Virus genome (UHGV): UHGV-0344222
Length of the DNA stretch: 39,491 nucleotides
Direction: 5' to 3' (one strand)
Source: a virus
Shown: positions 1-37,900 of the stretch, one piece after another
Layout of the letters: each line of letters starts with the position of its first letter
Numbering within the stretch: the first letter of the stretch is position 1
Made by a program: the position numbers and the translations under genes
The notes under the pieces: generated by a model
Databases searched by the model: none
Told to the model about the DNA's origin: nothing
Seen by the model: the letters and a program-made list of their open reading frames with translations, nothing else

Positions 1-148
1 AACTTCAAGTTTCGTGGAATTGACCAAGTCTATAACGCACTGGCTCCGGCGCTGGTTAATCACGGACTTCTTATCCTCCCCCGCATCACTGAGCGCACCG
101 TAACCGAGCGCACGACCCCAAAAGGCACTGTCCTGTTCTAGGTGGTGG
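1..148. repeat. Inverted duplicate of an internal segment of the ERF-like gene; reverse complement of about 324-473 with one mismatch
   Basis: Plus strand 1-143 translates to NFKFRGIDQVYNALAPALVNHGLLILPRITERTVTERTTPKGTVLF then TAG, the same peptide encoded on the minus strand at 324-473; the mismatch turns a Tyr codon into TAG. Repeat is cut by the window edge. Confidence 0.85.
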
Positions 149-566
149 TTACATCAATCGCTGTTTCTTCTGTCGGGATGCAGAACGCCTGAAACGCTGC
201 GTATTTGTAGGCAATCGACATGGCCTTGTTCGTTGCCTTGTCGCCGCTATCCATCGCTTCGCCGTATGTCACAACCGTGTGAACGCTGCCGTCCTTTGTG
301 CTCACAAAGTCGAACTCTGCTTTAACCACCACATAGAACAGGACAGTGCCTTTTGGGGTCGTGCGCTCGGTTACGGTGCGCTCAGTGATGCGGGGGAGGA
401 TAAGAAGTCCGTGATTAACCAGCGCCGGAGCCAGTGCGTTATAGACTTGGTCAATTCCACGAAACTTGAAGTTTTGCTGTGTGTTCGTCCTGTCCTTGCT
501 TATGCCGGTAGTCGCCATTTCCTTGGCTACTGCGCTGATTGCCTGATAAACAAGCTTATCTGTCAT
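138..566 (-). CDS. ERF-family single-strand annealing (recombination) protein, putative
   Basis: Motifs resemble P22 Erf as I recall it (NFKFRGID...; ...AYKYAAFQAFCI). ATG at 566 overlaps the upstream stop (ATGA); the longest ORF extends to a GTG at 593. Confidence 0.55.
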   Translation of the reverse strand: MTDKLVYQAISAVAKEMATTGISKDRTNTQQNFKFRGIDQVYNALAPALVNHGLLILPRITERTVTERTTPKGTVLFYVVVKAEFDFVSTKDGSVHTVVTYGEAMDSGDKATNKAMSIAYKYAAFQAFCIPTEETAIDVTTT

Positions 567-706
567 GAGTAATTCCCCGCGAACTCTTGCCACGTGATTG
601 GCTGATTCATTCGTTCAGCCGCTAGGTTAATTTGCTGCTCTACCTCTTCTTCAATTTCAGGAGAAATGAGAGCGATGAAATCGTCGTCTTCTAATTCATG
701 CAGCAT
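563..706 (-). CDS. Small strongly acidic hypothetical protein (47 aa from internal ATG; longest ORF 563-817)
   Basis: ORF track 563..817; plausible start MLHELEDDD...; stop overlaps the ERF-like start. No strong SD seen. Confidence 0.3.
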   Translation of the reverse strand: MLHELEDDDFIALISPEIEEEVEQQINLAAERMNQPITWQEFAGNYS

Positions 707-884
707 GTTTTTTGTTCCAGTCGTCGTCCTGAATATCATTCCATCCCATCGCGATTTCCCACGCCCATTCATAGGCTGAGTGGCGTCCTTCATCCGTATC
801 CGGGAATGCAGCTTCATAGAGCTTGTTGAACTCGCGGTTACCTTGTTGAACCAGAATGGTTCCGTTAACTGGCAAAATAGTCAT
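696..884 (-). CDS. Hypothetical early-left operon protein (62 aa)
   Basis: ORF track 696..1001 begins with TTG; in-frame ATG at 884 with GGAG about 11 nt upstream gives MTILPVNGT... Confidence 0.35.
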   Translation of the reverse strand: MTILPVNGTILVQQGNREFNKLYEAAFPDTDEGRHSAYEWAWEIAMGWNDIQDDDWNKKHAA

Positions 885-1085
885 AACGCGGCACTCCGGG
901 TTGAGAGAGGATGTCGGCCAGCTTTTTCCAGCCAGTGCGTAACTTGCGTGTGATGCGATCGAGAAGTGATTCAGAGCAGCCCACAACAGGCCACCCTGCA
1001 AAAGCGAACTGTTGCATGGTGTTATCCTTGGTTAATTGGCATAGCGAAAAGGCCGCGCTAATAAGCAGCCTTGTTGATATGCAGG

Positions 1086-1110
1086 CGAAAAAAAGCCCTC
1101 CGTAGAGGGC
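1086..1110 (-). terminator. Rho-independent terminator candidate in the early-left operon
   Basis: GCCCTC-CGTA-GAGGGC hairpin (1095-1110) followed on the minus strand by a 7-T run (plus-strand A-run 1088-1094). Confidence 0.55.
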
Positions 1111-1223
1111 GAACAGACAACAAGGGTTATTTCTCCATTTAACCAGAACAGGTCTTCGTCTCCTGTCTTGGTTATGATGCGGATTGCATCAGATAACCGA
1201 CTCTATGAATCGGCTATCGGCTG

Positions 1224-1469
1224 CTATTCAGCACTTTCAGCGAAGTCCTCGATTAGCTCATCCAGGCAATCGTCAGTCATGGCATCCATTCCCTGTGCTC
1301 GCTGCATGACTTCAATCGCATCGTCTGGTGAGAGGTCAACTGCAACCAGAAACTCAGCAACGGCAAGCTTTGCAACGTAATATTCATTCTCCTGCATGCA
1401 CTGGCTGAACACTGCGCTTACTGCACTTGTTAACCTGATCATCAGGTCATTGTTATCGCAACCTTCCAT
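1224..1469 (-). CDS. Strongly acidic 81-aa hypothetical protein
   Basis: ORF MEGCDNND...DDCLDELIEDFAESAE; 19 Asp/Glu versus 3 Arg/Lys by my count; ATG immediately follows the upstream stop. Confidence 0.5.
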   Translation of the reverse strand: MEGCDNNDLMIRLTSAVSAVFSQCMQENEYYVAKLAVAEFLVAVDLSPDDAIEVMQRAQGMDAMTDDCLDELIEDFAESAE

Positions 1470-1631
1470 TCACTCCTCCTCGCCGATGGCTTTAGCTTGC
1501 GAGCATTCATCATCAATGTCATAAATGTCGTGATAGCATTCGTGGCACAGCTCTTCATTGCCATCGCCACTGTAAACGGCAACCGCAGCAACCCCTTTGC
1601 CGCATACGTCGCATTCGACTTCCTCATCCAT
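1470..1631 (-). CDS. 53-aa CxxC...CxxC zinc-ribbon-like small protein (below the ORF-track cutoff)
   Basis: Manual translation of the minus strand: MDEEVECDVCGKGVAAVAVYSGDGNEELCHECYHDIYDIDDECSQAKAIGEEE; stop directly abuts the next ATG. Confidence 0.4.
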   Translation of the reverse strand: MDEEVECDVCGKGVAAVAVYSGDGNEELCHECYHDIYDIDDECSQAKAIGEEE

Positions 1632-1673
1632 ATCTCATCTCAGATAAGTGGCTTGCCCAAAAAGAAAGGCCGA

Positions 1674-1868
1674 CTATGCGGCCTTTAGTTTTTCCAGTTC
1701 TCTTTCAATCATTGCGGTGGTTCTTATTGCCCATTTATCGACATATTTCCCATCCTCCATTACAAGAAACATTTCATCAGGCTTAATCATGCATTCCGAT
1801 TGAAGCTGGCATCCATTGCATCGTTTGAATTGTCCACACCATTGATTTTTATCAATAGTCGTAGTCAT
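1674..1868 (-). CDS. ral: Ral restriction-alleviation protein
   Basis: MTTTIDKNQWCGQFKRCNGC... matches lambda Ral as I recall it; position between N/sieB and the early-left genes. Confidence 0.85.
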   Translation of the reverse strand: MTTTIDKNQWCGQFKRCNGCQLQSECMIKPDEMFLVMEDGKYVDKWAIRTTAMIERELEKLKAA

Positions 1869-2062
1869 ACGGATAGTCCTGGTACTGTTCCATTACATCC
1901 TGCGGATGCTCTTCGAACTCTTCAAATTCTTCTTCCATATATCACCTTAAATAGTGGATTGCGGTAGTAAAGATTGTGCCTGTCTTTTAACCACATCAGG
2001 CTCGGTGGTTCTCGTGTACCCCTACAGCGAGAAATCGGATAAACTATTACAACCCCTACAGT

Positions 2063-2617
2063 TTGATGAGTATAGAAATGGATCCACTCGTTATTCTCGG
2101 ACGAGTGTTCAGTAATGAACCTCTGGAGAGAACCATGTATATGATCGTTATCTGGGTTGGACTTCTGCTTTTAAGCCCAGATAACTGGCCTGAATATGTT
2201 AATGAGAGAATCGGTATTCCTCATGTGTGGCATGTTTTCGTCTTTGCTCTTGCATTTTCGCTAGCAATTAATGTGCATCGATTATCAGCTATTGCCAGCG
2301 CCAGATATAAGCGATTTAAGCTAAGAAAACGCATTAAGATGCAAAACGATAAAGTGCGATCAGTAATTCAAAACCTTACAGAAGAGCAATCTATGGTTTT
2401 GTGCGCAGCCCTTAATGAAGGCAGGAAGTATGTGGTTACATCAAAACAATTCCCATACATTAGTGAGTTGATTGAGCTTGGTGTGTTGAACAAAACTTTT
2501 TCCCGATGGAACGGGAAGCATATATTATTCCCTATTGAGGATATTTACTGGACTGAATTAGTTGCCAGCTATGATCCATATAATATTGAGATAAAGCCAA
2601 GGCCAATATCTAAGTAA
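2063..2617 (+). CDS. sieB: SieB superinfection-exclusion (abortive infection) membrane protein
   Basis: 184-aa ORF with hydrophobic N-terminal segments, convergent with and abutting N, as sieB is in lambda. Confidence 0.65.
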   Translation: MMSIEMDPLVILGRVFSNEPLERTMYMIVIWVGLLLLSPDNWPEYVNERIGIPHVWHVFVFALAFSLAINVHRLSAIASARYKRFKLRKRIKMQNDKVRSVIQNLTEEQSMVLCAALNEGRKYVVTSKQFPYISELIELGVLNKTFSRWNGKHILFPIEDIYWTELVASYDPYNIEIKPRPISK

Positions 2618-2941
2618 CTAGGTAAGAGGAATCGATTTTCCCTTAATTTTCTGGCGTCCACTGCATGTTATGCCGCGTTCGCCAGGCTTGCTGTACCATG
2701 TGCGCTGATTCTTGCGCTCAATACGTTGCAGGTTGCTTTCAATCTGTTTGTGGTATTCAGCCAGCACTGTAAGGTCTATCGGATTTAGTGCGCTTTCTAC
2801 TCGTGATTTCGGTTTGCGATTCAGCGAGAGAATAGGGCGGTTAACTGGTTTTGCGCTTACCCCAACCAACAGGGGATTTGCTGCTTTCCATTGAGCCTGT
2901 TTCTCTGCGCGACGTTCGCGGCGGCGTGTTTGTGCATCCAT
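2618..2941 (-). CDS. N: Antitermination protein N
   Basis: From the ATG at 2941 the protein reads MDAQTRRRERRAEKQAQWKAANPLLVGVSAKPVNRPILS..., matching lambda N (107 aa); the ORF track extends further upstream. Confidence 0.92.
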   Translation of the reverse strand: MDAQTRRRERRAEKQAQWKAANPLLVGVSAKPVNRPILSLNRKPKSRVESALNPIDLTVLAEYHKQIESNLQRIERKNQRTWYSKPGERGITCSGRQKIKGKSIPLT

Positions 2942-3051
2942 CTGGATTCTCCTGCCAGTTAGCTTTGAGTAACGCGCCGTGATGCTTATCTCCACGGTTG
3001 CTGTCTTGCAGCTGCATTTCGCGCTACTCAAAGCCTTCTGCTTTGAATGCT

Positions 3052-3083
3052 GCCCTTCTTCAGGGCTAAATTTTTAAGAGCGT
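3052..3083 (-). promoter_or_regulatory. nutL (boxA CGCTCTTA and boxB GCCCTGAAGAAGGGC on the minus strand)
   Basis: Reverse complement of 3052-3083 gives boxA/boxB upstream of N. Confidence 0.8.
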
Positions 3084-3121
3084 CACCTTCATGGTGGTCA
3101 GTGCGTCCTGCTGATGTGCTT

Positions 3122-3185
3122 AGTATCACCGCTAGTGGTATTTATGTCAACACCGCCAGAGATAATTTATCACCGCAGATGGTTA
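3122..3185 (-). promoter_or_regulatory. pL promoter with operators OL1 (3124-3140), OL2 (3148-3164), OL3 (3169-3185)
   Basis: 17-bp operators recognisable; -35 TTGACA (rc of 3145-3150) and -10 GATACT (rc of 3122-3127). OL1 has one substitution versus reference lambda. Confidence 0.85.
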
Positions 3186-3340
3186 TCTGTATGTTTTTTA
3201 TATAGATTTATTTTTTGCAGGGTTGTGTGGATTGGGAAGGTGATCGAGAGATCTGAATTGCGATGTTTAGTGAGTTGTATCTATTAATTTCCAAATAAAT
3301 ACAATTGGTTATGTGTTCTTGGGTGAGGGGGATCGTGAGG

Positions 3341-3367
3341 CAAAGAAAACCCGGCTCTGTGGCCGGG
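3341..3367 (-). terminator. Rho-independent terminator downstream of the cI operon (t-imm-like)
   Basis: CCCGGC-TCTGTG-GCCGGG hairpin followed on the minus strand by a T-rich run, directly after the stop of the 3376..4137 gene. Confidence 0.6.
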
Positions 3368-3375
3368 AATAACAT

Positions 3376-4137
3376 TTAGGAATCAAGGTCAGGTAGCATG
3401 ATTTTCTCAATCAACGTCAATGCCCTTTGGTCTCGTTCAGCAAAATATTTAGGAGCGTACTGAGGCAGCCACACTTCGTTGAAGTGTTGTTTGAAATCTG
3501 CAAGATATTCGTTTGGGTATAGACGTACCGGGAATGTCCGGCCATCTGGGTACTCATGGTTATATGTTGGGAATGTCTTCGGCTCAACCCCCCGGTTGTC
3601 ACGGAGCCATTGCGAGAAAACCCTACCCTCTGAAATATCAGGGACCATTTTTTCTGGCAGCGTATATCCGGCCTGTTCAAGTGGCGCAACCAAGTTAAAC
3701 GTCAGTTCATTAAGCATAGAAAAGTGCGTATGAGGAACTCTGCCTCGGTTTGTCATATACCGCTTAAGGTGGATAGGGAGTTCGGCAGGCGCTCTTTCAC
3801 CTGACATCCACTCACGCACCCATCTCGATACTTGCACTGCAAATTTTGGAGATAGCCACTGAGCTAAATTAATTGCGATGTCTGGATGAACCCAAGTCCC
3901 TTGATTCTCTGCTCTTCCGCCTTTAAATGATTGAATTAACTCCGATATGGGAATCCCCATATCGCGTGATAATTCATCAAAAAAATCTTGTGTTGTTTTT
4001 AGTCGTGTATAGTCAGCAAGTAGCTTCCCCGCAGACTTGCACATCGCGGTGGCATTGATGTATCCGTCTTTGGTGCGAAGATGGATGACTTCTCCATCAA
4101 CTTCTCTAGCGATTAATGCAAGTTGAAACTGTGTCAT
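3376..4137 (-). CDS. KilA-N domain protein at the rexAB-equivalent locus (BstA-like abortive-infection candidate)
   Basis: 253 aa; N-terminal KilA-N-type motifs (DGYINAT..., GTWVHPDIAINLAQWLSPKFAVQVSRWV); starts 31 bp after the cI stop, same strand, ends at the t-imm-like terminator. Confidence 0.75.
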   Translation of the reverse strand: MTQFQLALIAREVDGEVIHLRTKDGYINATAMCKSAGKLLADYTRLKTTQDFFDELSRDMGIPISELIQSFKGGRAENQGTWVHPDIAINLAQWLSPKFAVQVSRWVREWMSGERAPAELPIHLKRYMTNRGRVPHTHFSMLNELTFNLVAPLEQAGYTLPEKMVPDISEGRVFSQWLRDNRGVEPKTFPTYNHEYPDGRTFPVRLYPNEYLADFKQHFNEVWLPQYAPKYFAERDQRALTLIEKIMLPDLDS

Positions 4138-4168
4138 AAATCATCCTATTACGTGAAAAATAAAACAA

Positions 4169-4885
<717 letters not shown>

Positions 4886-4892
4886 TTAAATC

Positions 4893-4957
4893 TATCACCG
4901 CAAGGGATAAATATCCAACACCGTGCGTGTTGACTATTTTACCTCTAGCGGTGATAA
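4893..4957. promoter_or_regulatory. OR3 (4893-4909), OR2 (4917-4933), OR1 (4940-4956) with pR (-35 TTGACT 4930-4935, -10 GATAAT 4952-4957) and divergent pRM
   Basis: Operators and promoter hexamers read directly; OR1 and OR2 each differ from reference lambda at one base. Confidence 0.9.
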
Positions 4958-4973
4958 TGGTTGCATGTACTAA

Positions 4974-5183
<210 letters not shown>

Positions 5184-5190
5184 ATAACCC

Positions 5191-5222: not shown

Positions 5223-5301
5223 ATCAAATTAAACCACACCTATGGTGTATGCATTTATTTGCATACATTCAATCAATTGTTATCTAAGGAAATACTTACA
5301 T

Positions 5302-5595
5302 ATGGTTCGTGCAAACAAACGCAACGAGGCTCTACGAATCGAGAGTGCGTTGCTTAACAAAATCGCAATGCTTGGAACTGAGAAGACAGCGGAAGCTGTA
5401 GGAGTTGATAAGTCGCAGATCAGCAGGTGGAAGAGGGACTGGATTCCAAAGTTCTCAATGCTGCTTGCTGTTCTTGAATGGGGTGTCGTTGACGACGACA
5501 TGGCTCGATTGGCACGACAAGTTGCTGCGATTCTCACCAATAAAAAACGCCCGGCGGCAACCGAGCGTTCTGAACAAATCCAGATGGAGTTCTGA
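5302..5595 (+). CDS. cII: cII transcriptional activator
   Basis: MVRANKRNEALRIESALLNKIAMLGTEKTAEAVGVDKSQISRWKRDW... (97 aa) from the ATG at 5302; the ORF track starts upstream. Confidence 0.95.
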   Translation: MVRANKRNEALRIESALLNKIAMLGTEKTAEAVGVDKSQISRWKRDWIPKFSMLLAVLEWGVVDDDMARLARQVAAILTNKKRPAATERSEQIQMEF

Positions 5596-5625
5596 GGTCA
5601 TTACTGGATCAATCTACAGGAGTCA
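5542..5625 (-). ncRNA. oop: oop-like antisense RNA with its terminator (approximate)
   Basis: Minus-strand hairpin CGCUCGG/CCGGGCG followed by T6 (plus 5542-5571), inside the cII 3' end as for lambda oop; 5' end not determined. Confidence 0.45.
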
Positions 5626-5627
5626 TT

Positions 5628-6527
5628 ATGACAAATACAGCAAAAATACTCAACTTCTGCAGAGGTAACTTTGCCGGACAGGAGCGTAATGTGGCAGATC
5701 TCGATGATGGTTACGCCAGACTATCAAATATGCTGCTTGAGGCTTATTCGGGCGCAGATCTGACCAAGCGACAGTTTAAAGTGCTGCTTGCCATTCTGCG
5801 TAAAACCTATGGGTGGAATAAACCAATGGACAGAATCACCGATTCTCAACTTAGCGAGATTACAAAGTTACCCGTCAAACGGTGCAATGAAGCCAAGTTA
5901 GAACTCGTCAGAATGAATATTATCAAGCAGCAAGGCGGCATGTTTGGACCAAATAAAAACATCTCAGAATGGTGTATCCCTCAAAACGAGGGAAAATCCC
6001 CTAAAACGAGGGATAAAACATCCCTCAAATTGGGGGATTGCTATCCCTCAAAACAGGGGGACACAAAAGACACTATTACAAAAGAAAAAAGAAAAGATTA
6101 TTCGTCAGAGAATTCTGGCGAATCCTCTGACCAGCCAGAAAACGATCTTTCTGTGGTGAAACCGGATGCTGCAATTCAGAGCGGCAGCAAGTGGGGGACA
6201 GCAGAAGACCTGACCGCCGCAGAGTGGATGTTTGACATGGTGAAGACCATCGCGCCATCAGCCAGAAAACCGAATTTTGCTGGGTGGGCTAACGATATCC
6301 GCCTGATGCGTGAACGTGACGGACGTAACCACCGCGACATGTGCGTGCTGTTCCGCTGGGCATGCCAGGACAACTTCTGGTCCGGTAACGTGCTGAGCCC
6401 GGCCAAACTCCGCGACAAGTGGACCCAGCTCGAAATCAACCGTAACAAGCAACAGGCAGTCGTGACAGCCAGCAAACCAAAACTCGACCTGACAAACACA
6501 GACTGGATTTACGGGGTGGATCTATGA
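5628..6527 (+). CDS. O: Replication initiator O
   Basis: 299 aa, matches lambda O as I recall it; contains the iterons. Confidence 0.97.
   Translation: MTNTAKILNFCRGNFAGQERNVADLDDGYARLSNMLLEAYSGADLTKRQFKVLLAILRKTYGWNKPMDRITDSQLSEITKLPVKRCNEAKLELVRMNIIKQQGGMFGPNKNISEWCIPQNEGKSPKTRDKTSLKLGDCYPSKQGDTKDTITKEKRKDYSSENSGESSDQPENDLSVVKPDAAIQSGSKWGTAEDLTAAEWMFDMVKTIAPSARKPNFAGWANDIRLMRERDGRNHRDMCVLFRWACQDNFWSGNVLSPAKLRDKWTQLEINRNKQQAVVTASKPKLDLTNTDWIYGVDL
5975..6110. other. Origin of replication (ori-lambda type): four iterons plus an AT-rich stretch inside O
   Basis: Repeated TCCCTCAAAACGAGGGA-like units at about 5975-6062, then AAAAGAAAAAAGAAAAG. Confidence 0.85.
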
Positions 6528-7225
6528 AAAACATCGCCGCACAGATGGTTAACTTTGACCGTGAGCAGATGCGTCGGATCGCCAACAACATGCCGGAACA
6601 GTACGATGAAAAGCCGCAGGTACAGCAGGTAGCGCAGATCATCAACGGTGTGTTCAGCCAGTTACTGGCAACTTTCCCGGCGAGCCTGGCTAACCGTGAC
6701 CAGAACGAAGTGAACGAAATCCGTCGCCAGTGGGTTCTGGCTTTTCGGGAAAACGGGATCACCACGATGGAACAGGTTAACGCAGGAATGCGCGTAGCCC
6801 GTCGGCAGAATCGACCATTTCTGCCATCACCCGGGCAGTTTGTTGCATGGTGCCGGGAAGAAGCATCCGTTATCGCCGGACTGCCAAACGTCAGCGAGCT
6901 GGTTGATATGGTTTACGAGTATTGCCGGAAGCGAGGCCTGTATCCGGATGCGGAGTCTTATCCGTGGAAATCAAACGCGCACTACTGGCTGATTACCAAC
7001 CTGTATCAGAACATGCGGGCCAATGCGCTTACTGATGCGGAATTACGCCGTAAGGCCGCAGATGAGCTTGTCCATATGACTGCGAGAATTAACCGTGGTG
7101 AGGCGATCCCTGAACCAGTAAAACAACTTCCTGTCATGGGCGGTAGACCTCTAAATCGTGCACAGGCTCTGGCGAAGATCGCAGAAATCAAAGCTAAGTT
7201 CGGACTGAAAGGAGCAAGTGTATGA
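6524..7225 (+). CDS. P: Replication protein P (helicase loader)
   Basis: 233 aa, lambda P-like; start overlaps the O stop. Confidence 0.97.
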   Translation: MKNIAAQMVNFDREQMRRIANNMPEQYDEKPQVQQVAQIINGVFSQLLATFPASLANRDQNEVNEIRRQWVLAFRENGITTMEQVNAGMRVARRQNRPFLPSPGQFVAWCREEASVIAGLPNVSELVDMVYEYCRKRGLYPDAESYPWKSNAHYWLITNLYQNMRANALTDAELRRKAADELVHMTARINRGEAIPEPVKQLPVMGGRPLNRAQALAKIAEIKAKFGLKGASV

Positions 7226-7512
7226 CGGGCAAAGAGGCAATTATTCATTACCTGGGGACGCATAATAGCTTCTGTGCGCCGGACGTTGCCGCGCTAACAG
7301 GCGCAACAGTAACCAGCATAAATCAGGCCGCGGCTAAAATGGCACGGGCAGGTCTTCTGGTTATCGAAGGTAAGGTCTGGCGAACGGTGTATTACCGGTT
7401 TGCTACTAGGGAAGAACGGGAAGGAAAGATGAGCACGAACCTGATTTTTAAGGAGTGTCGCCAGAGTGCCGCGATGAAACGGGTATTGGCGGTATATGGA
7501 GTTAAAAGATGA
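7222..7512 (+). CDS. ren: Ren exclusion protein
   Basis: 96 aa MTGKEAIIHYLGTHNSFCAPDVAALTG... Confidence 0.92.
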   Translation: MTGKEAIIHYLGTHNSFCAPDVAALTGATVTSINQAAAKMARAGLLVIEGKVWRTVYYRFATREEREGKMSTNLIFKECRQSAAMKRVLAVYGVKR

Positions 7513-7585
7513 CCATCTACATTACTGAGCTAATAACAGGCCTGCTGGTAATCGCAGGCCTTTTTATTTGGGGGAGAGGGAAGTC

Positions 7586-8026
7586 ATGAAAAAACTAACC
7601 TTTGAAATTCGATCTCCAGCACATCAGCAAAACGCTATTCACGCAGTACAGCAAATCCTTCCAGACCCAACCAAACCAATCGTAGTAACCATTCAGGAAC
7701 GCAACCGCAGCTTAGACCAAAACAGGAAGCTATGGGCCTGCTTAGGTGACGTCTCCCGTCAGGTTGAATGGCATGGTCGCTGGCTGGATGCAGAAAGCTG
7801 GAAGTGTGTGTTTACCGCAGCATTAAAGCAGCAGGATGTTGTTCCTAACCTTGCCGGGAATGGCTTTGTGGTAATAGGCCAGTCAACCAGCAGGATGCGT
7901 GTAGGCGAATTTGCGGAGCTATTAGAGCTTATACAGGCATTCGGTACAGAGCGTGGCGTTAAGTGGTCAGACGAAGCGAGACTGGCTCTGGAGTGGAAAG
8001 CGAGATGGGGAGATCGGGCTGCATGA
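7586..8026 (+). CDS. ninB: NinB (Orf-family recombination mediator)
   Basis: MKKLTFEIRSPAHQQNAIHAVQQILPDPTKP... from the ATG at 7586. Confidence 0.9.
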   Translation: MKKLTFEIRSPAHQQNAIHAVQQILPDPTKPIVVTIQERNRSLDQNRKLWACLGDVSRQVEWHGRWLDAESWKCVFTAALKQQDVVPNLAGNGFVVIGQSTSRMRVGEFAELLELIQAFGTERGVKWSDEARLALEWKARWGDRAA

Positions 8027-8550
8027 CTATCAAATCAAATACGCCAGCACACGACAAGGACTGCTGGCAAACGCCGCTTTGGCTTTTTGATGCACTGGAT
8101 ATTGAGTTTGGATTCTGGCTGGATTCGGCAGCGAGCGACAAAAATGCTCTGTGTGCTCACTGGCTAACTGAGGCCGACGACGCGCTCAATTCTGAGTGGG
8201 TAAGCCACGGTGCAATCTGGAATAACCCACCGTACAGCAATATCAGGCCGTGGGTGGAAAAAGCCGCTGAGCAGTGCAGACAACAGCGACAGACGGTAGT
8301 TATGCTTGTGCCAGAGGATATGTCAGTCGGATGGTTCAGCAAGGCTCTGGAGAGTGTCGACGAAGTTCGCATTATCACTGATGGACGGATTAATTTTATC
8401 GAACCATCGACAGGGCTGGAGAAGAAGGGAAACAGCAAAGGCTCCATGCTGCTGATTTGGCGACCGTTCATCAGTCCTCGACGGATGTTTACTACCGTAT
8501 CCAAAGCGGCATTGATGGCGATCGGGCAGGGCGTCAGGAGGGCGGCATGA
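8023..8550 (+). CDS. Phage-type DNA N6-adenine methyltransferase (orphan, no cognate nuclease seen)
   Basis: NPPY catalytic motif ([13 protein letters not shown]); ATGA overlap with the ninB stop; occupies the ninC/ninD position. Confidence 0.8.
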
Positions 8551-8723
8551 GGCGACAGCGACGAAGTTTCACCGACATCATCTGCGAAAACTGCAAATAC
8601 CTTCCAACGAAACGCTCCAGAAATAAACGCAAGCCAATCCCAAAAGAATCTGACGTAAAAACCTTCAATTACACAGCTCACCTGTGGGATATCCGGTGGC
8701 TAAGATATCGTGCGAGGAAATGA
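8547..8723 (+). CDS. ninE: NinE
   Basis: [58 protein letters not shown]; ATGA overlap with the methyltransferase stop. Confidence 0.85.
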
Positions 8724-9067: not shown

Positions 9068-9276
9068 CCCATCTCAATCCCTTCAATACCTGAAAGGAAG
9101 CATAGAGCGGGCTTCAATGTGCACAGAGTGGATTCTATCTAGGTTTAGCGCATACAGAAGATTGCCGGTAAAGGGCATGCCAAGCAAGTCGATGCTGCAT
9201 ATGCAAAAGAATGCGCGCTGGAAGGTATGGCGAGAACACAGGTTATCTGGCTGAAAGAGGGGGTTATTAAGGCGTG
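9060..9276 (+). pseudogene. ninF N-terminus fused out of frame to a ybcO-like C-terminus (mosaic junction remnant)
   Basis: First about 19 codons match NinF as I recall it ([10 protein letters not shown]...ERA); a different frame (9149-9277) encodes ...[25 protein letters not shown], the YbcO C-terminus; GTGA overlap with rusA. Confidence 0.5.
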
Positions 9277-9636
9277 AATACCTACAGCATCGCATTACCC
9301 TGGCCTCCGAGCAATAACCGCTACTACCGGCATAATCGCGGGCGCACGCACATCAGCGCAGAAGGGCAGGCATACCGCGATAACGTCGCTCGAATCATTA
9401 AAAACGCAATGCTGGATATCGGCCTGGCTATGCCTGTGAAAATCCGCATTGAGTGCCACATGCCGGATCGCCGTCGCCGTGACCTGGATAATCTGCAAAA
9501 AGCCGCTTTTGACGCACTCACTAAAGCAGGTTTCTGGCTGGATGATGCTCAGGTCGTTGATTACCGCGTTGTGAAGATGCCTGTTACCAAAGGTGGGAGG
9601 CTGGAACTGACCATCACCGAAATGGGGAATGAATGA
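9274..9636 (+). CDS. rusA: RusA Holliday-junction resolvase
   Basis: 120 aa, GTG start; matches DLP12 RusA as I recall it. Confidence 0.93.
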
Positions 9637-9773: not shown

Positions 9774-9858
9774 AGTCAGAGATAACAATCAACTAATACT
9801 GTTTTGTTGATTTTTGCTTGTAATTGGCGTTCTGGTCTGAGTTTTGTGGAGTAAGTTG

Positions 9859-10242
9859 ATGCGTGATATTCAGATGGTTCTTGAGCGTTGGGGAGCGTGG
9901 GCGGCTAATAATCATGAAGATGTGACCTGGTCGTCCATTGCCGCCGGTTTTAAGGGATTAATTACTTCAAAAGTAAAATCTCGCCCGCAATGTTGTGACG
10001 ATGACGCGATGATCATTTGCGGGTGCATGGCCCGTCTGAAAAAGAACAACAGCGATTTGCACGATTTATTAGTAGATTATTATGTAGTCGGTATGACATT
10101 CATGTCACTGGCAGGTAAGCATTGCTGCTCTGATGGTTATATCGGGAAAAGGTTACAGAAGGCTGAGGGCATAATTGAAGGGATGTTAATGGCATTAGAT
10201 ATCCGGTTAGAGATGGATATCGTTGTTAATAACTCTAATTAA
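9859..10242 (+). CDS. quuD: Late-gene antiterminator Q (QuuD / phage-82 type)
   Basis: [34 protein letters not shown]... 127 aa. Confidence 0.88.
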
Positions 10243-10430: not shown

Positions 10431-11513
10431 TTAGAACTGGTAAACCATACCTACAGCAACGATATCATCGGTAGCAACGCCAGATGCTTTCGTGAAATCG
10501 CTCTTATCAATCAGGTTGATTTTGTAGTCAACAAAAGTGGACATATTTTTGTTGAAGTAATAGGTTGCACCTACATCAACATATTCAACCAGGTCCTGAT
10601 CACCCCAAACACCCAAGTCTTTTCCTTTAGAATGCAGGTAAGCAACGGATGGACGCAGGCCGAAGTCGAACTGATATTGTGCAACAGCTTCGAAGTTTTG
10701 TGCTTTGTTGGCAATATGGTTATTACCAAAAACAGTCATGTTCTGGGTTTCAGAATAGGTGGTGGCCAGATAGATGTTGTTCGCATCATATTTCAGACCA
10801 GCTGCCCATACTTCAGCATTTTGACCAGAAGCATTCAGACCGTTGTTACCGTAGATAACCTGATTATTAGTGCGATCAGATTTAGCATAGGTTGCACCCA
10901 CGCCGAATCCTTCATACTCATAAGTAGTTGAGAAACCGAAACCATCGCCATTAGCTTCAGTTACTTCATTTCGGTCATTTTTGCCCTGATACTGAGCTGC
11001 AAAGTTCAGGCCATCAACCAGACCAAAGAAGTCGTTGTTACGATAAGTTGCAACACCTGTGGTGCGACCAGTCATGAATACATCTGTTTGGGTCCAGGTA
11101 TCGCCACCGAATTCTGGCAGAACGTCAGTCCACGCACCGATGTCGTATGCTACACCGTAGTTACGGCCGTAATCGATTGAGCCGTAGTCACCGAATTTCA
11201 GGCCTGCAAATGCAAGACGGGTTTTGTCTTTGGAGGAACCTTGAGATTCAGCGCGGTTGCCTTTGAATTCATATTCCCACTGACCGAAACCAGTCAGTTG
11301 ATCGTTGATTTGGGTTTCACCTTTGAAGCCAAGACGGGCATAAGTAGTATCACCATCATCTGCATCATTAGAGGAGAAGTAGTGCTTAGCATTAACTTTC
11401 CCGTACAGATCCAGCTTGTTACTGTCTTTATTATAAATTTCAGCTGCCTGAGCAGACATCGCCATCAGTACTGATGCAGCTACAGCAGAAATTGCCACTG
11501 TTAATTTTTTCAT
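10431..11513 (-). CDS. nmpC: Outer-membrane porin (OmpC/NmpC family), apparently intact
   Basis: 360 aa with signal peptide [23 protein letters not shown] and C-terminal ...MVYQF. Confidence 0.92.
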
Positions 11514-12814: not shown

Positions 12815-13248
12815 ACAGAGTAACCGCGATTATCTCCGCTCTGGTTATCTGCATCATCGTCTGCCTGTCATGGGCTGTTAATCATTACCGTGATAACGCC
12901 ATGACCTACAAAGAACAGCGCGACAAAGCCACATCCATCATCGCTGACATGCAGAAGCGTCAACGTGACGTAGCAGAACTCGATGCCAGATATACAAAGG
13001 AGCTTGCTGATGCTAACGCGACTATCGAAAGTCTCCGTGATGATGTTTCTGCTGGGCGTAAGCGGCTGCAAGTCGCCGCCTCCTGTGCAAAGTCAAAGAC
13101 CGGAGCCAGCAGCATGGGCGATGGAGAAAGCCCAAGACTTACAGCAGATGCTGAACTCAATTATTACCGTCTCCGAAGTGGAATCGACAGGATAACCGCG
13201 CAGGTTAACTACCTGCAGGAGTACATCAGGACGCAATGTCTGAAATAA
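12811..13248 (+). CDS. rzpD: Rz i-spanin
   Basis: [23 protein letters not shown]...; ATGA overlap with the endolysin stop. Confidence 0.85.
13010..13195 (+). CDS. rzoD: Rz1 o-spanin lipoprotein embedded in Rz (+1 frame)
   Basis: [20 protein letters not shown] with lipobox, Pro-rich mature part; AAGGA 8 nt upstream of the ATG at 13010. Confidence 0.7.
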
Positions 13249-13279
13249 TTTTTTTGCAAATCACAAAGTCCATTTAATG

Positions 13280-34274: not shown

Positions 34275-34874
34275 ATGCGTAAACTTTATGCCGCCATTTT
34301 GTCCGCAGCCATCTGTCTGGCCGTATCCGGTGCGCCTGCATGGGCGTCTGAACATCAGTCCACGCTGAGCGCGGGCTATCTTCATGCCTCGACGAACGTT
34401 TCCGGCAGCGATGATCTGAACGGGATTAACGTGAAATACCGTTATGAGTTTACGGACACGCTGGGAATGGTGACGTCATTCAGCTATGCAGGAGACAAGA
34501 ATCGCCAGCTTACCCGTTACAGCGATACCCGCTGGCATGAAGATTCCGTGCGTAACCGCTGGTTCAGCGTAATGGCGGGGCCGTCTGTGCGCGTGAATGA
34601 ATGGTTCAGCGCGTATGCGATGGCGGGTGTGGCTTACAGCCGTGTGTCGACTTTCTCCGGGGATTATCTCCGCGTAATTGACAACAAGGGGAAAACGCAC
34701 GACGTGCTGACCGGAAGTGATGACGGTCGCCACAGCAACACGTCTCTGGCGTGGGGAGCTGGCGTGCAGTTTAACCCGACCGAATCCGTGGCCATTGATA
34801 TTGCTTATGAAGGCTCCGGCAGTGGTGACTGGCGCACTGACGGTTTCATCGTGGGTGTCGGTTATAAATTCTGA
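34275..34874 (+). CDS. lom: Lom outer-membrane protein (Ail/OmpX family)
   Basis: 199 aa with signal peptide [24 protein letters not shown] and ...[11 protein letters not shown]-terminus. Confidence 0.9.
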
Positions 34875-34932
34875 TTAGCCAGGTAACACAGTGTTATGAC
34901 AGCCCGCCGGTTCAGGCGGGCTTTTTTGTGGG

Positions 34933-37900
34933 GTGAATATGGCAGTAAAGATTTCAGGTGTACTGAAAGACGGCACAGGAAAACCGGTACAGAACTGCAC
35001 AATCCAGCTGAAAGCAAAACGTAACAGTACCACTGTGGTGGTGAACACGCTGGCCTCAGAAAATCCGGATGAAGCCGGGCGTTACAGCATGGACGTTGAG
35101 TACGGTCAGTACAGCGTTATTCTGTTGGTGGAAGGATTCCCGCCGTCACATGCCGGGACCATCACCGTGTATGAAGATTCTCAACCCGGTACGCTGAATG
35201 ATTTTCTCGGTGCCATGACGGAGGATGATGCCCGTCCGGAGGCACTGCGTCGTTTTGAACTGATGGTGGAAGAGGTGGCGCGTAACGCGTCCGTGGTGGC
35301 ACAGAACACGGCAGCCGCAAAGAAGTCAGCCAGTGATGCCAGCACATCTGCCAGTGAGGCGGCAACCCGTGCGACTGATGCTGCAGATTCAGCACGTGCA
35401 GCCAGCACGTCAGCCGGACAGGCCGCGTCGTCGGCTCAGTCAGCGTCTTCCAGCGCAGGAACGGCATCAACAAAGGCCACTGAAGCCTCAAAAAGTGCTG
35501 CCGCTGCAGAGTCCTCAAAAAGCGCGGCGGCTACCAGTGCCGGTGCGGCGAAAACGTCAGAAACGAATGCGGCAGTGTCAGAACAATCAGCCGCCACTTC
35601 TGCATCCACCGCGACCACGAAAGCGTCAGAAGCTGCCACCTCAGCCAGGGATGCGTCGGCTTCAAAAGAGGCGGCAAAATCATCAGAAACGAACGCATCA
35701 TCAAGCGCCAGTAGTGCAGCTTCCTCGGCAACGGCGGCAGGAAATTCCGCGAAGGCGGCAAAGACGTCTGAGACAAACGCCAGGTCCTCTGAAACGGCAG
35801 CAGCACAGAGTGCCTCCGCAGCAGCAGGCTCAAAAACAGCGGCTGTGTCGTCGGCCAGTGCCGCGTCAACAAGTGCCGGGCAGGCCTCAGCCAGTGCCAC
35901 CGCCGCCGGAAAATCGGCAGAAAGCGCCGCGTCGTCCGCTTCAACAGCCACAACGAAGGCTGGCGAAGCCACTGAACAGGCCAGCGCAGCAGCGAGGTCT
36001 GCTTCCGCAGCGAAGACATCCGAAACGAACGCGAAAGCGTCGGAAACCAACGCAGAATCCTCAAAAACGGCTGCCGCATCGTCCGCCAGTTCGGCGGCGT
36101 CATCGGCATCATCGGCGTCTGCTTCAAAAGATGAGGCGACCAGACAGGCGTCAGCAGCGAGGGGCAGCGCCACGACGGCATCCACGAAGGCGACAGAGGC
36201 TGCTGGCAGTGCGGCAGCGGCAGCACAGAGCAAAAGTACGGCAGAATCCGCAGCAACGCGCGCTGAGACAGCGGCAAAACGGGCAGAGGATATTGCATCC
36301 GCCGTGGCGCTTGAGGATGCGAGCACGACGAAAAAGGGGATAGTACAGCTCAGCAGTGCGACTAACAGCACGTCTGAAACGCTGGCGGCAACGCCAAAGG
36401 CAGTAAAAGCAGCCTATGACAATGCAGAGAAACGTCTGCAGAAAGACCAGAACGGTGCTGATATTCCCGACAAGGACCGCTTCCTGAGTAACATTAATGT
36501 TTACAGCAAAGGTGAAGTGGATCAGAAAAAGGGGATGCGATACGTTGTGGTAAATGCCCCGGCGGGTGTCCAGGAAGGTAAATATTATCCGTTAGTGATA
36601 AAAAGGAATGACAGCCATCGGGCATCCCGCGTTGTCATTTCAACGCCAAGTCGCTTAGCTAATCACAGAATGAATAATTGTGAGTTTAATGGTTTTGTTT
36701 GCGCAGGCGGCTGGACGGACCGGGGTAGCTATGCCTGTGGTATGTTCTGGGCTTATTCATCATCGGAACGCGCTATTCATTCCATTCTGATGAGTAATAA
36801 AGGCGATACCGTAGACAGCGTATTCTATATAGAAGGTGGGGCATTTCCCGTAGAGGTCTTTTTAGAAGAAGGTCTCTCCGTTACTGCACCTGCTTCTGAT
36901 TATATTGTTGCTGAAACGACTTATAAATTTGGCGCAACTGATCCTTATTCTGAATCAGTTGCGGTAAATTTAATTTTAGATTTTAAACAAGGTAATGGAT
37001 TTTATAGTTCGTATCCTGTTTTGAGTAAGTCAGACATTAGCGGGAATAAGATTTACGCTAATGATGAAGTTATTGTCCGTAGTCAGAACGCGTTAAGGAT
37101 GATTGCAGGTGATTACGGTGTCATATGGCGAAATGATGGAGCAAATACTTACTTGCTCATGACTGATAAAGGCGACCAGTACGGTGGCTGGAACGGTCTT
37201 CGACCATTTGCAGTAAATAACGCAACAGGTGAAGTGACGATCAATACACCACTTAATTCTCCTAAGGGGATTAAGGGAAATTCTGATACAGCTACGAAAC
37301 TTCAGACAGCAATAAAAATATCTGGTGTTTCGTTTGATGGTTCTACTGATATCACTTTAACCGCTGCGCATGTTGCTGCTTTTGCCAGAAGAGCAACGGA
37401 TACGTATGCCGATGCGGATGGGGGCGTTCCCTGGAATGCCGAATCAGGCGCTTACAATGTCACTCGCTCTGGCGACAGCTATATTCTGGTTAACTTCTAT
37501 ACCGGAGTCGGAAGTTGCCGGACCTTGCAGATGAAGGCGCATTACAGAAATGGTGGTCTGTTCTACCGTTCTTCAAGAGACGGTTATGGTTTTGAGGAAG
37601 ACTGGGCAGAAGTTTATACCTCGAAAAATCTTCCACCAGAAAGCTACCCAGTCGGCGCACCAATCCCGTGGCCATCAGATACCGTTCCGTCTGGTTATGC
37701 CCTGATGCAGGGGCAGACTTTTGACAAATCTGCTTACCCGAAACTTGCAGCTGCTTATCCGTCAGGCGTGATCCCTGATATGCGTGGCTGGATGATTAAG
37801 GGCAAGCCCGCCAGTGATCGAGCCGTATTGTCTCAGGAACAGGACGGCATTAAATCACACACCCACAGCGCCAGCGTATCCAGTACGGATTTGGGGACGA

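Follow-up and report, generated by a model that had tools for sequence, protein, structure and literature searches.

An open reading frame of 175 codons lies on the plus strand at positions 8023-8550 of the window (the whole stretch of 39,491 bases that was analysed), with its ATG at 8023-8025 and its TGA at 8548-8550 in the program-made listing of reading frames. The window is a lambda-like prophage or phage, and the reading frame sits between ninB and ninE in its nin region. The features of the locus are as follows.

4930-4958, plus strand: pR-like sigma-70 promoter (TTGACT, 17 nt, GATAAT), from a consensus scan only, with 10 of 12 matches
7538-7569, plus strand: tR2-type intrinsic terminator between ren and ninB, with an 8-bp G+C-rich stem (7538-7561) and a T run, from a terminator scan
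7586-8026, plus strand: ninB (orf), recombination mediator gene, matching PF05772 (E 2e-54) and 99.1% identical to lambda up to 8026
8009-8012, plus strand: Shine-Dalgarno-like GGAG in the 3'-terminal part of ninB, placed 10 nt before the start codon of the methyltransferase gene
8023-8550, plus strand: methyltransferase coding sequence, recognised by its reading frame, the profiles PF05869 and TIGR01712, 174 of 175 residues shared with VT2-Sakai orf32, its motifs and a predicted gamma-class fold
8027-8553, no strand: mosaic cassette without lambda homology, replacing lambda 41085-42096 (ninC, ninD and the first ninE codons)
8547-8723, plus strand: ninE, matching PF05322 (E 3e-42), with lambda homology resuming at 8554

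At both ends of the methyltransferase gene a stop and a start codon overlap within an ATGA. The TGA of ninB (8024-8026) and the methyltransferase ATG share 8023-8026, and the methyltransferase TGA and the ATG of ninE (8547-8549) share 8547-8550. Such overlaps are the typical arrangement of the nin region (PMC8022706). In phage 434 a ribosome-binding site is annotated at the position equivalent to the GGAG at 8009-8012. A GATC at 8012-8015 overlaps this GGAG, 8 nt upstream of the ATG. Two other readings of the same DNA were considered and rejected. A longer frame starting from the GTG at 7963 is unsupported: the profiles begin at residue 2-4 of the protein that starts at ATG 8023, and the homologues are 175-183 aa long. 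An antisense ORF of 174 aa (8157-8681) was without support and was treated as a shadow ORF.

Judged by profile searches, the match of the predicted protein to a methyltransferase family is far beyond chance. It covered positions 1-167 of 169 of PF05869, 'DNA N-6-adenine-methyltransferase (Dam)' (E 1.2e-65; 220.8 bits, cut-off 28.1), and positions 1-165 of 165 of the NCBIfam equivalog TIGR01712, 'phage N-6-adenine-methyltransferase' (266.6 bits, cut-off 97.05). PHROG 111 (phrog_111), 'DNA methyltransferase', was matched at E 7e-88. The segment IWNNPPYS occupies residues 65-72 of the protein; the TP of motif X is found at residues 17-18, an LD.AA segment resembling motif I at 33-37, and the NPPY of motif IV at 68-71. 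Residues D13, W15, T17, P18, L33, D34, A37 and NPPYS (68-72), among others, were invariant in an alignment with T1 Dam and HP1 Dam, and N68-S72, T17, P18, L33, D34 and A36 were invariant among 39 homologues. The sequence-only reading had proposed an NPPY-type N6-adenine methyltransferase at 8023-8550, coupled between ninB and ninE. The first part is borne out by the reading frame, the NPPY motif and the matches to PF05869, TIGR01712 and phrog_111, and the second agrees with the ATGA overlap at both junctions.

With full-length profile matches, the motifs and a predicted Rossmann-type fold in a small single domain lacking a separate target-recognition domain (about 170-240 aa is the size expected), the protein falls into the family of the T1, HP1 and VT2 Dam enzymes. 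It falls outside the classical Dam family (PF02086 MethyltransfD12, alpha class), as a Pfam search of the protein gave no PF02086 match. From their description, enzymes of the Hia5 and M.EcoGII type are also set apart: the window protein has NPPY, no FxGxG, and PF05869 as its only Pfam family match. This is an intact, ordinary phage gene in its usual place, already known and routinely annotated.

Comparison with lambda by blastn gave 99.1% identity over window positions 5442-8026, from cII through the last base of ninB. Identity resumed inside ninE (95.2% over 8554-8720), and there was no match between these two segments. Lambda NinC, a weak PAPS-reductase-domain protein, gave no alignment with the methyltransferase at E <= 100, and this absence of protein similarity rules out NinC as its diverged relative. 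Since NinC is unrelated to the methyltransferase, the cassette is a non-homologous replacement. On the alignments, the event is best described as the exchange of one cassette for an unrelated one, and the breakpoints fall at gene boundaries.

Around the cassette, the genes follow in the order cII, O, P, ren, ninB, methyltransferase, ninE, ninX, rusA, ylcG and a Q-family antiterminator gene; RusA is a Holliday-junction resolvase. Beyond Q come an OmpC-type porin gene on the opposite strand, lysis genes, and genes for terminase, portal, capsid E, FI, tail tube and tape measure, and then L, a K-like gene, J, Lom, a tail fibre and a fibre assembly protein. The left part contains an ERF-family recombinase fragment (138-593), DUF5444, SieB (2063-2617), N (2618-3031), a KilA-N protein (3376-4137) and an S24/HTH repressor on the minus strand (4169-4882), and is followed by cII (5242-5595). 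No restriction endonuclease was found in the 39,491-base window, and the prophage ends lie outside it. Within the window the enzyme is thus an orphan (solitary) methyltransferase. Two further claims made from the letters withstood these comparisons. One was the replacement of lambda ninC and ninD, and lambda homology indeed stops at the ninB stop (8026) and restarts at 8554. The other was that no cognate endonuclease is adjacent; the neighbours encode NinB, NinE, NinX, RusA, YlcG and Q, and the other large ORFs serve immunity, replication, lysis, packaging, and head and tail formation.

Several observations concern the mosaic make-up of the element. A prophage with a 100% identical methyltransferase gene aligned with the window only from 5189 onward, at 98.8%, and left window positions 1-5189 unmatched. 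Among complete E. coli genomes, none covered the window's first 25 kb at 99% or more, and 86% at 98.5% was the highest coverage. By these alignments, known modules have come together in this element as a new mosaic. The porin gene (10431-11513, minus strand) encodes a 360-aa protein of the OmpC/NmpC type; the gene for the Q antiterminator (9844-10242) precedes it and the lysis genes follow. The porin gene is moron-like, as in DLP12-type prophages, and in strain NT1F25 a near-identical prophage has a 'porin OmpC' annotation. At about 9188-9277, immediately before rusA (9274-9636), a truncated 'DUF1364 domain-containing protein' pseudogene is annotated in the near-identical prophage (13166-13255 there). 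This pseudogene is a remnant of another nin-region gene after mosaic recombination.

The specificity of the enzyme can be predicted from its relatives. The window protein and VT2-Sakai orf32 (NP_050531) were identical at 174 of 175 positions (99.4%). The single difference is at residue 86, where the window has R, the family consensus, and VT2-Sakai has I. This near-identical VT2-Sakai copy was reportedly cloned and characterised by Radlinska and Bujnicki in 2001, with GATC methylation as the result. Orf32 is the only VT2-Sakai gene annotated as a methylase, and a six-frame scan of VT2-Sakai for [DNS]PP[YFWH] in ORFs of at least 80 codons returned orf32 alone. PMC6602927, citing Radlinska & Bujnicki 2001, refers to the 'orphan MTase M.EcoVT2Dam of E. 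coli prophage VT2-Sa' as known to target GATC. Because orf32 is the sole VT2-Sakai ORF with an amino-methyltransferase motif, we infer, by elimination within VT2-Sakai, that M.EcoVT2Dam is orf32. Orf4 of VT2-Sakai (299 aa, near xis) was considered as the real M.EcoVT2Dam and rejected, being a DUF551 protein. PMC6602927 gives 99.2% similarity for copies that are also called identical, a figure that fits no whole number of mismatches in 175 residues; the discrepancy is unexplained.

More distant members of the family point in the same direction. M.EcoT1Dam has been described as modifying G(m6A)TC, and M.Btr190III, a prophage enzyme 35% identical to M.EcoT1Dam, methylated GATC after cloning and had substantial off-target activity (PMC4996451). 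From the near-identity to orf32 and the reports on T1 Dam and M.Btr190III, GATC specificity of the window enzyme is a strong prediction and almost certainly correct. At high expression its specificity may be looser than strict GATC.

A search of the PDB by sequence found no relative of the protein, the only match being SdiA at E 0.61, which is a chance match. The fold was therefore judged on a predicted model. This model is a minimal gamma-class catalytic domain with M.TaqI as its best match and without a separate recognition domain. The motif order, X (TP), then the I-like segment (LD.AA), then IV (NPPY), is gamma-like, and the interval from motif I to motif IV is only about 30 residues long; residues 31-50 were modelled at low confidence (pLDDT 51-56). 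No solved structure is detectable by sequence for PF05869. It is possible, although we consider it unlikely, that GATC is read without a recognition domain by a mechanism unseen in solved methyltransferases, for example by a dimer or by the poorly modelled 38-62 segment together with the 121-140 hairpin. Such an enzyme would perhaps also have significant in vivo activity beyond GATC, and would then counter restriction more broadly than 'a second Dam'.

The lack of a separate target-recognition domain in the predicted fold would also suit a relaxed or near non-specific adenine methyltransferase, for which GATC is merely the best site and which, strongly expressed in the lytic cycle, would modify many sequence contexts and so protect against a wide range of restriction systems. 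The off-target activity of M.Btr190III (PMC4996451) is in line with this explanation, as is the frequent promiscuity of prophage- and plasmid-borne methyltransferases (PMC4659465; PMC3299994). We nevertheless regard it as decidedly improbable. The 99.4% identical M.EcoVT2Dam is reported as GATC-specific in PMC6602927, and T1 Dam likewise (PMC4996451). Further, the non-specific phage enzymes Hia5, Hin1523 and Nme1821 have a different architecture, whereas PF05869 is the only Pfam family that the window protein matches.

Expression of the gene can be considered by comparison with lambda, where the nin genes past tR2 in the pR operon depend on N antitermination. Phage 434 has a terminator annotated at the same place as the tR2-type one found here, in a region that shares 99.1% identity with lambda. 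Transcription through the methyltransferase gene is presumed to start at the promoter at 4930-4958, which separates the repressor gene from the rightward early operon. By this analogy, a gene placed after tR2 in the pR operon, as here, would be expressed in a delayed-early, N-dependent manner and be silent under repression. Consistent with this, transcripts of the 528-bp 'dam' gene of phage Phi24B followed the lytic cycle after induction (PMC3342100); that gene shares 100% identity with VT2-Sakai NP_050531 and 99% with HK97.

These expression data bear on the idea that the enzyme is an epigenetic regulator in the lysogen, where it would supplement host Dam and stabilise lysogeny or alter host genes, with no lytic action on phage DNA. 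Stable lysogeny of the Stx phage 933W reportedly requires host Dam, the authors of the Phi24B study raised this idea for the phage dam gene, and a screen of lysogen cultures recovered the Phi24B gene product (PMC3342100). However, the signal from the lysogen cultures was attributed to spontaneously induced cells and the Phi24B transcript had a lytic pattern (PMC3342100), while the gene in the window lies past a tR2-type terminator in a repressor-controlled pR operon. Moreover, from the methylomes of STEC (PMC6602927) and Bibersteinia (PMC4996451) such prophage genes could be credited with no activity beyond that of host Dam. We therefore consider a role mainly in the lysogen to be very improbable.

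The 528-bp gene was found at a DNA identity of at least 95% in 1566 of 5426 complete E. coli genomes (approximately 29%), with up to five copies per genome. The E. coli copies are annotated 'phage N-6-adenine-methyltransferase' and lie between ninB and ninE. The block of ninB, methyltransferase gene and ninE is 98-99.8% identical in many lambdoid phages (434, Sf101, mEp and 'ev' phages, Stx phages). A tblastn search detected relatives in 2137 phage records, and in 244 of these the identity reached at least 95%. T1-like phages of Escherichia, Klebsiella, Salmonella and Shigella carry more distant relatives, at 25-45% identity, as do phages of Vibrio, Lactococcus, Gordonia and Staphylococcus. 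In the protein database, entries named 'phage N-6-adenine-methyltransferase' are spread across Enterobacterales and include relatives at 60-86% identity.

The idea of a passenger gene, inactive or in decay and filling a non-essential region of the mosaic without a current function, can be dismissed almost with certainty: the nin region is dispensable in lambda, which has the unrelated ninC and ninD at the same position, and truncated and fused forms of the gene exist in the protein database, but the frame in the window is intact and full length against PF05869 and TIGR01712, all catalytic motifs are conserved, the protein recurs at the 95% level in the 244 phage records and the DNA in the 1566 E. 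coli genomes, and the invariant motif residues of the Enterobacterales relatives at 60-86% identity indicate purifying selection.

In the fused forms in the protein database, the methyltransferase is joined to NinE (233-235 aa, with 41 members in one such cluster), to NinB, to RusA, to CII or to a domain of the Q family. Their probable origins are frameshifts at the ATGA overlaps, recombinant junctions or errors of gene calling. Escherichia phage Eeyore (PP925821; 2453-3787) encodes a 444-aa protein annotated as 'phosphoadenosine phosphosulfate reductase'. The N-terminal part of this protein matches PF05869 (residues 19-199, E 2e-43), its C-terminal extension of about 245 aa matches nothing in Pfam, and a second DNA methyltransferase gene follows. 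A functional link between PAPS-reductase-type genes (the lambda NinC slot, the Eeyore annotation) and Dam genes is possible.

The reading that we prefer, and hold to be very probable, is that the gene encodes a Dam-type phage methyltransferase specific for GATC, which is produced in the delayed-early lytic phase and completes GATC methylation of the phage genome independently of host dam. The gene would be transcribed from pR after N antitermination, coupled in translation to ninB and ninE, and largely silent in the lysogen. The enzyme would use S-adenosylmethionine to methylate adenine N6 in double-stranded DNA at GATC, the specificity of host Dam. In virion DNA of the phages lambda, P22 and L, Dam sites are incompletely methylated, presumably because replication outruns host Dam (PMC3299994; PMC8022706). 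Fast-replicating phage genomes left under-methylated by host Dam would in this way receive full GATC methylation whatever the dam status of the host.

Two benefits may follow from such methylation. Progeny DNA would be shielded from methylation-sensitive restriction enzymes that cut GATC in the next host. Nicking by MutH and binding by SeqA at hemi- or unmethylated GATC would also be avoided during replication and recombination; the methyltransferase gene sits among the recombination genes ninB and rusA. We infer this biological role and these benefits of GATC methylation. The gene is dispensable under laboratory conditions, as lambda lacks it and grows well. A point against a benefit is that full GATC methylation would expose the DNA to methyl-dependent enzymes of the DpnI type.

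The GATC content of the window was also determined. A total of 99 GATC sites were observed in 39491 bases, compared with 153 expected from base composition and 182 +/- 12 expected from second-order Markov simulation, so that the site is strongly depleted. The longest gap without a GATC is 2.1 kb (34413-36520). GATC avoidance has been reported for lambda-like prophages generally (PMC6602927; PMC4659465). Depletion is unexpected if self-methylation fully neutralised GATC sites, and it counts against a strong requirement for the gene.

A methyltransferase with the specificity of host Dam has consequences for how its activity is looked for. In STEC (PMC6602927) and Bibersteinia (PMC4996451) methylomes, prophage Dam homologues were inseparable from host Dam. 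Because host Dam already methylates GATC, even a fully active phage enzyme would add no new motif to the methylome of a dam+ host. As a result of this masking, the finding of 'no new motif' upon expression, which the sequence-only reading had named as a refutation, is unsound as a refutation of activity. Methylome surveys of dam+ strains are blind to the enzyme, and an experiment seeking 'a new motif' would yield a false negative. Induction of the prophage may raise GATC methylation of phage DNA, and possibly of host DNA.

Of the known systems, VT2-Sakai orf32 is closest in sequence and context, with the same length of 528 bp and the same order of ninB, methyltransferase gene and ninE with overlapping stop and start codons; the gene is also present as 'dam' in Phi24B, in HK97 and 434, and in many Stx phages. 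The carriers differ. The window phage is a lambda/434/DLP12-type mosaic without stx, and VT2-Sakai has a Lar-like gene upstream of ninB. This VT2-Sakai gene, orf30 (NC_000902 15792-16034), encodes a 'Lar-like restriction alleviation protein' and overlaps the start of ninB, and is a second anti-restriction-type function in that block. In the window the Lar-like gene is absent, and ren is followed directly by tR2 and ninB.

T1 Dam (M.EcoT1Dam, 237 aa) and HP1 Dam (orf13, 173 aa) are orphan phage enzymes that also belong to PF05869, with 32% and 35% identity to the window protein, respectively. The primary paper on HP1 Dam is said to report GATC methylation. T1 Dam is longer by about 45 residues at its N-terminus and by 14 residues inserted internally, and T1 is a virulent phage. 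HP1, which has been listed among phages encoding Dam-like proteins (PMC7556043), is a P2-like phage of Haemophilus, and the gene contexts in both T1 and HP1 are unrelated to the nin region.

Hia5, Hin1523, Nme1821 and M.EcoGI/GII resemble the window enzyme in being prophage-borne orphan m6A methyltransferases that are thought to protect phage DNA from restriction (PMC3299994). In contrast to it, Hia5, Hin1523 and Nme1821 are described as having DPPY and FxGxG and a larger architecture with a region of about 90 residues replacing the recognition domain, and as methylating adenine in nearly any context (PMC3299994). Membership of the Hia5 family was rejected on the basis of the DPPY, FxGxG and larger architecture described there, as opposed to the PF05869-only match here. 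M.EcoGIX ('SAY') was likewise rejected: it is plasmid-borne (pESBL) and is treated as a single-strand-specific enzyme associated with plasmid replication.

The other gamma-class enzymes M.TaqI, M.BseCI, CamA and Type I HsdM have 380-610 aa and a separate recognition domain or specificity subunit, compared with 175 aa here. E. coli Dam, T4 Dam and DpnM are alpha-class enzymes with a recognition domain, whereas the window protein is about 100 residues shorter, is without such a domain and has a gamma-like motif order. The GATC specificity that the window enzyme is predicted to have in common with classical Dam would be convergent, and convergent specificity has already been noted for other phage GATC methyltransferases (PMC7556043).
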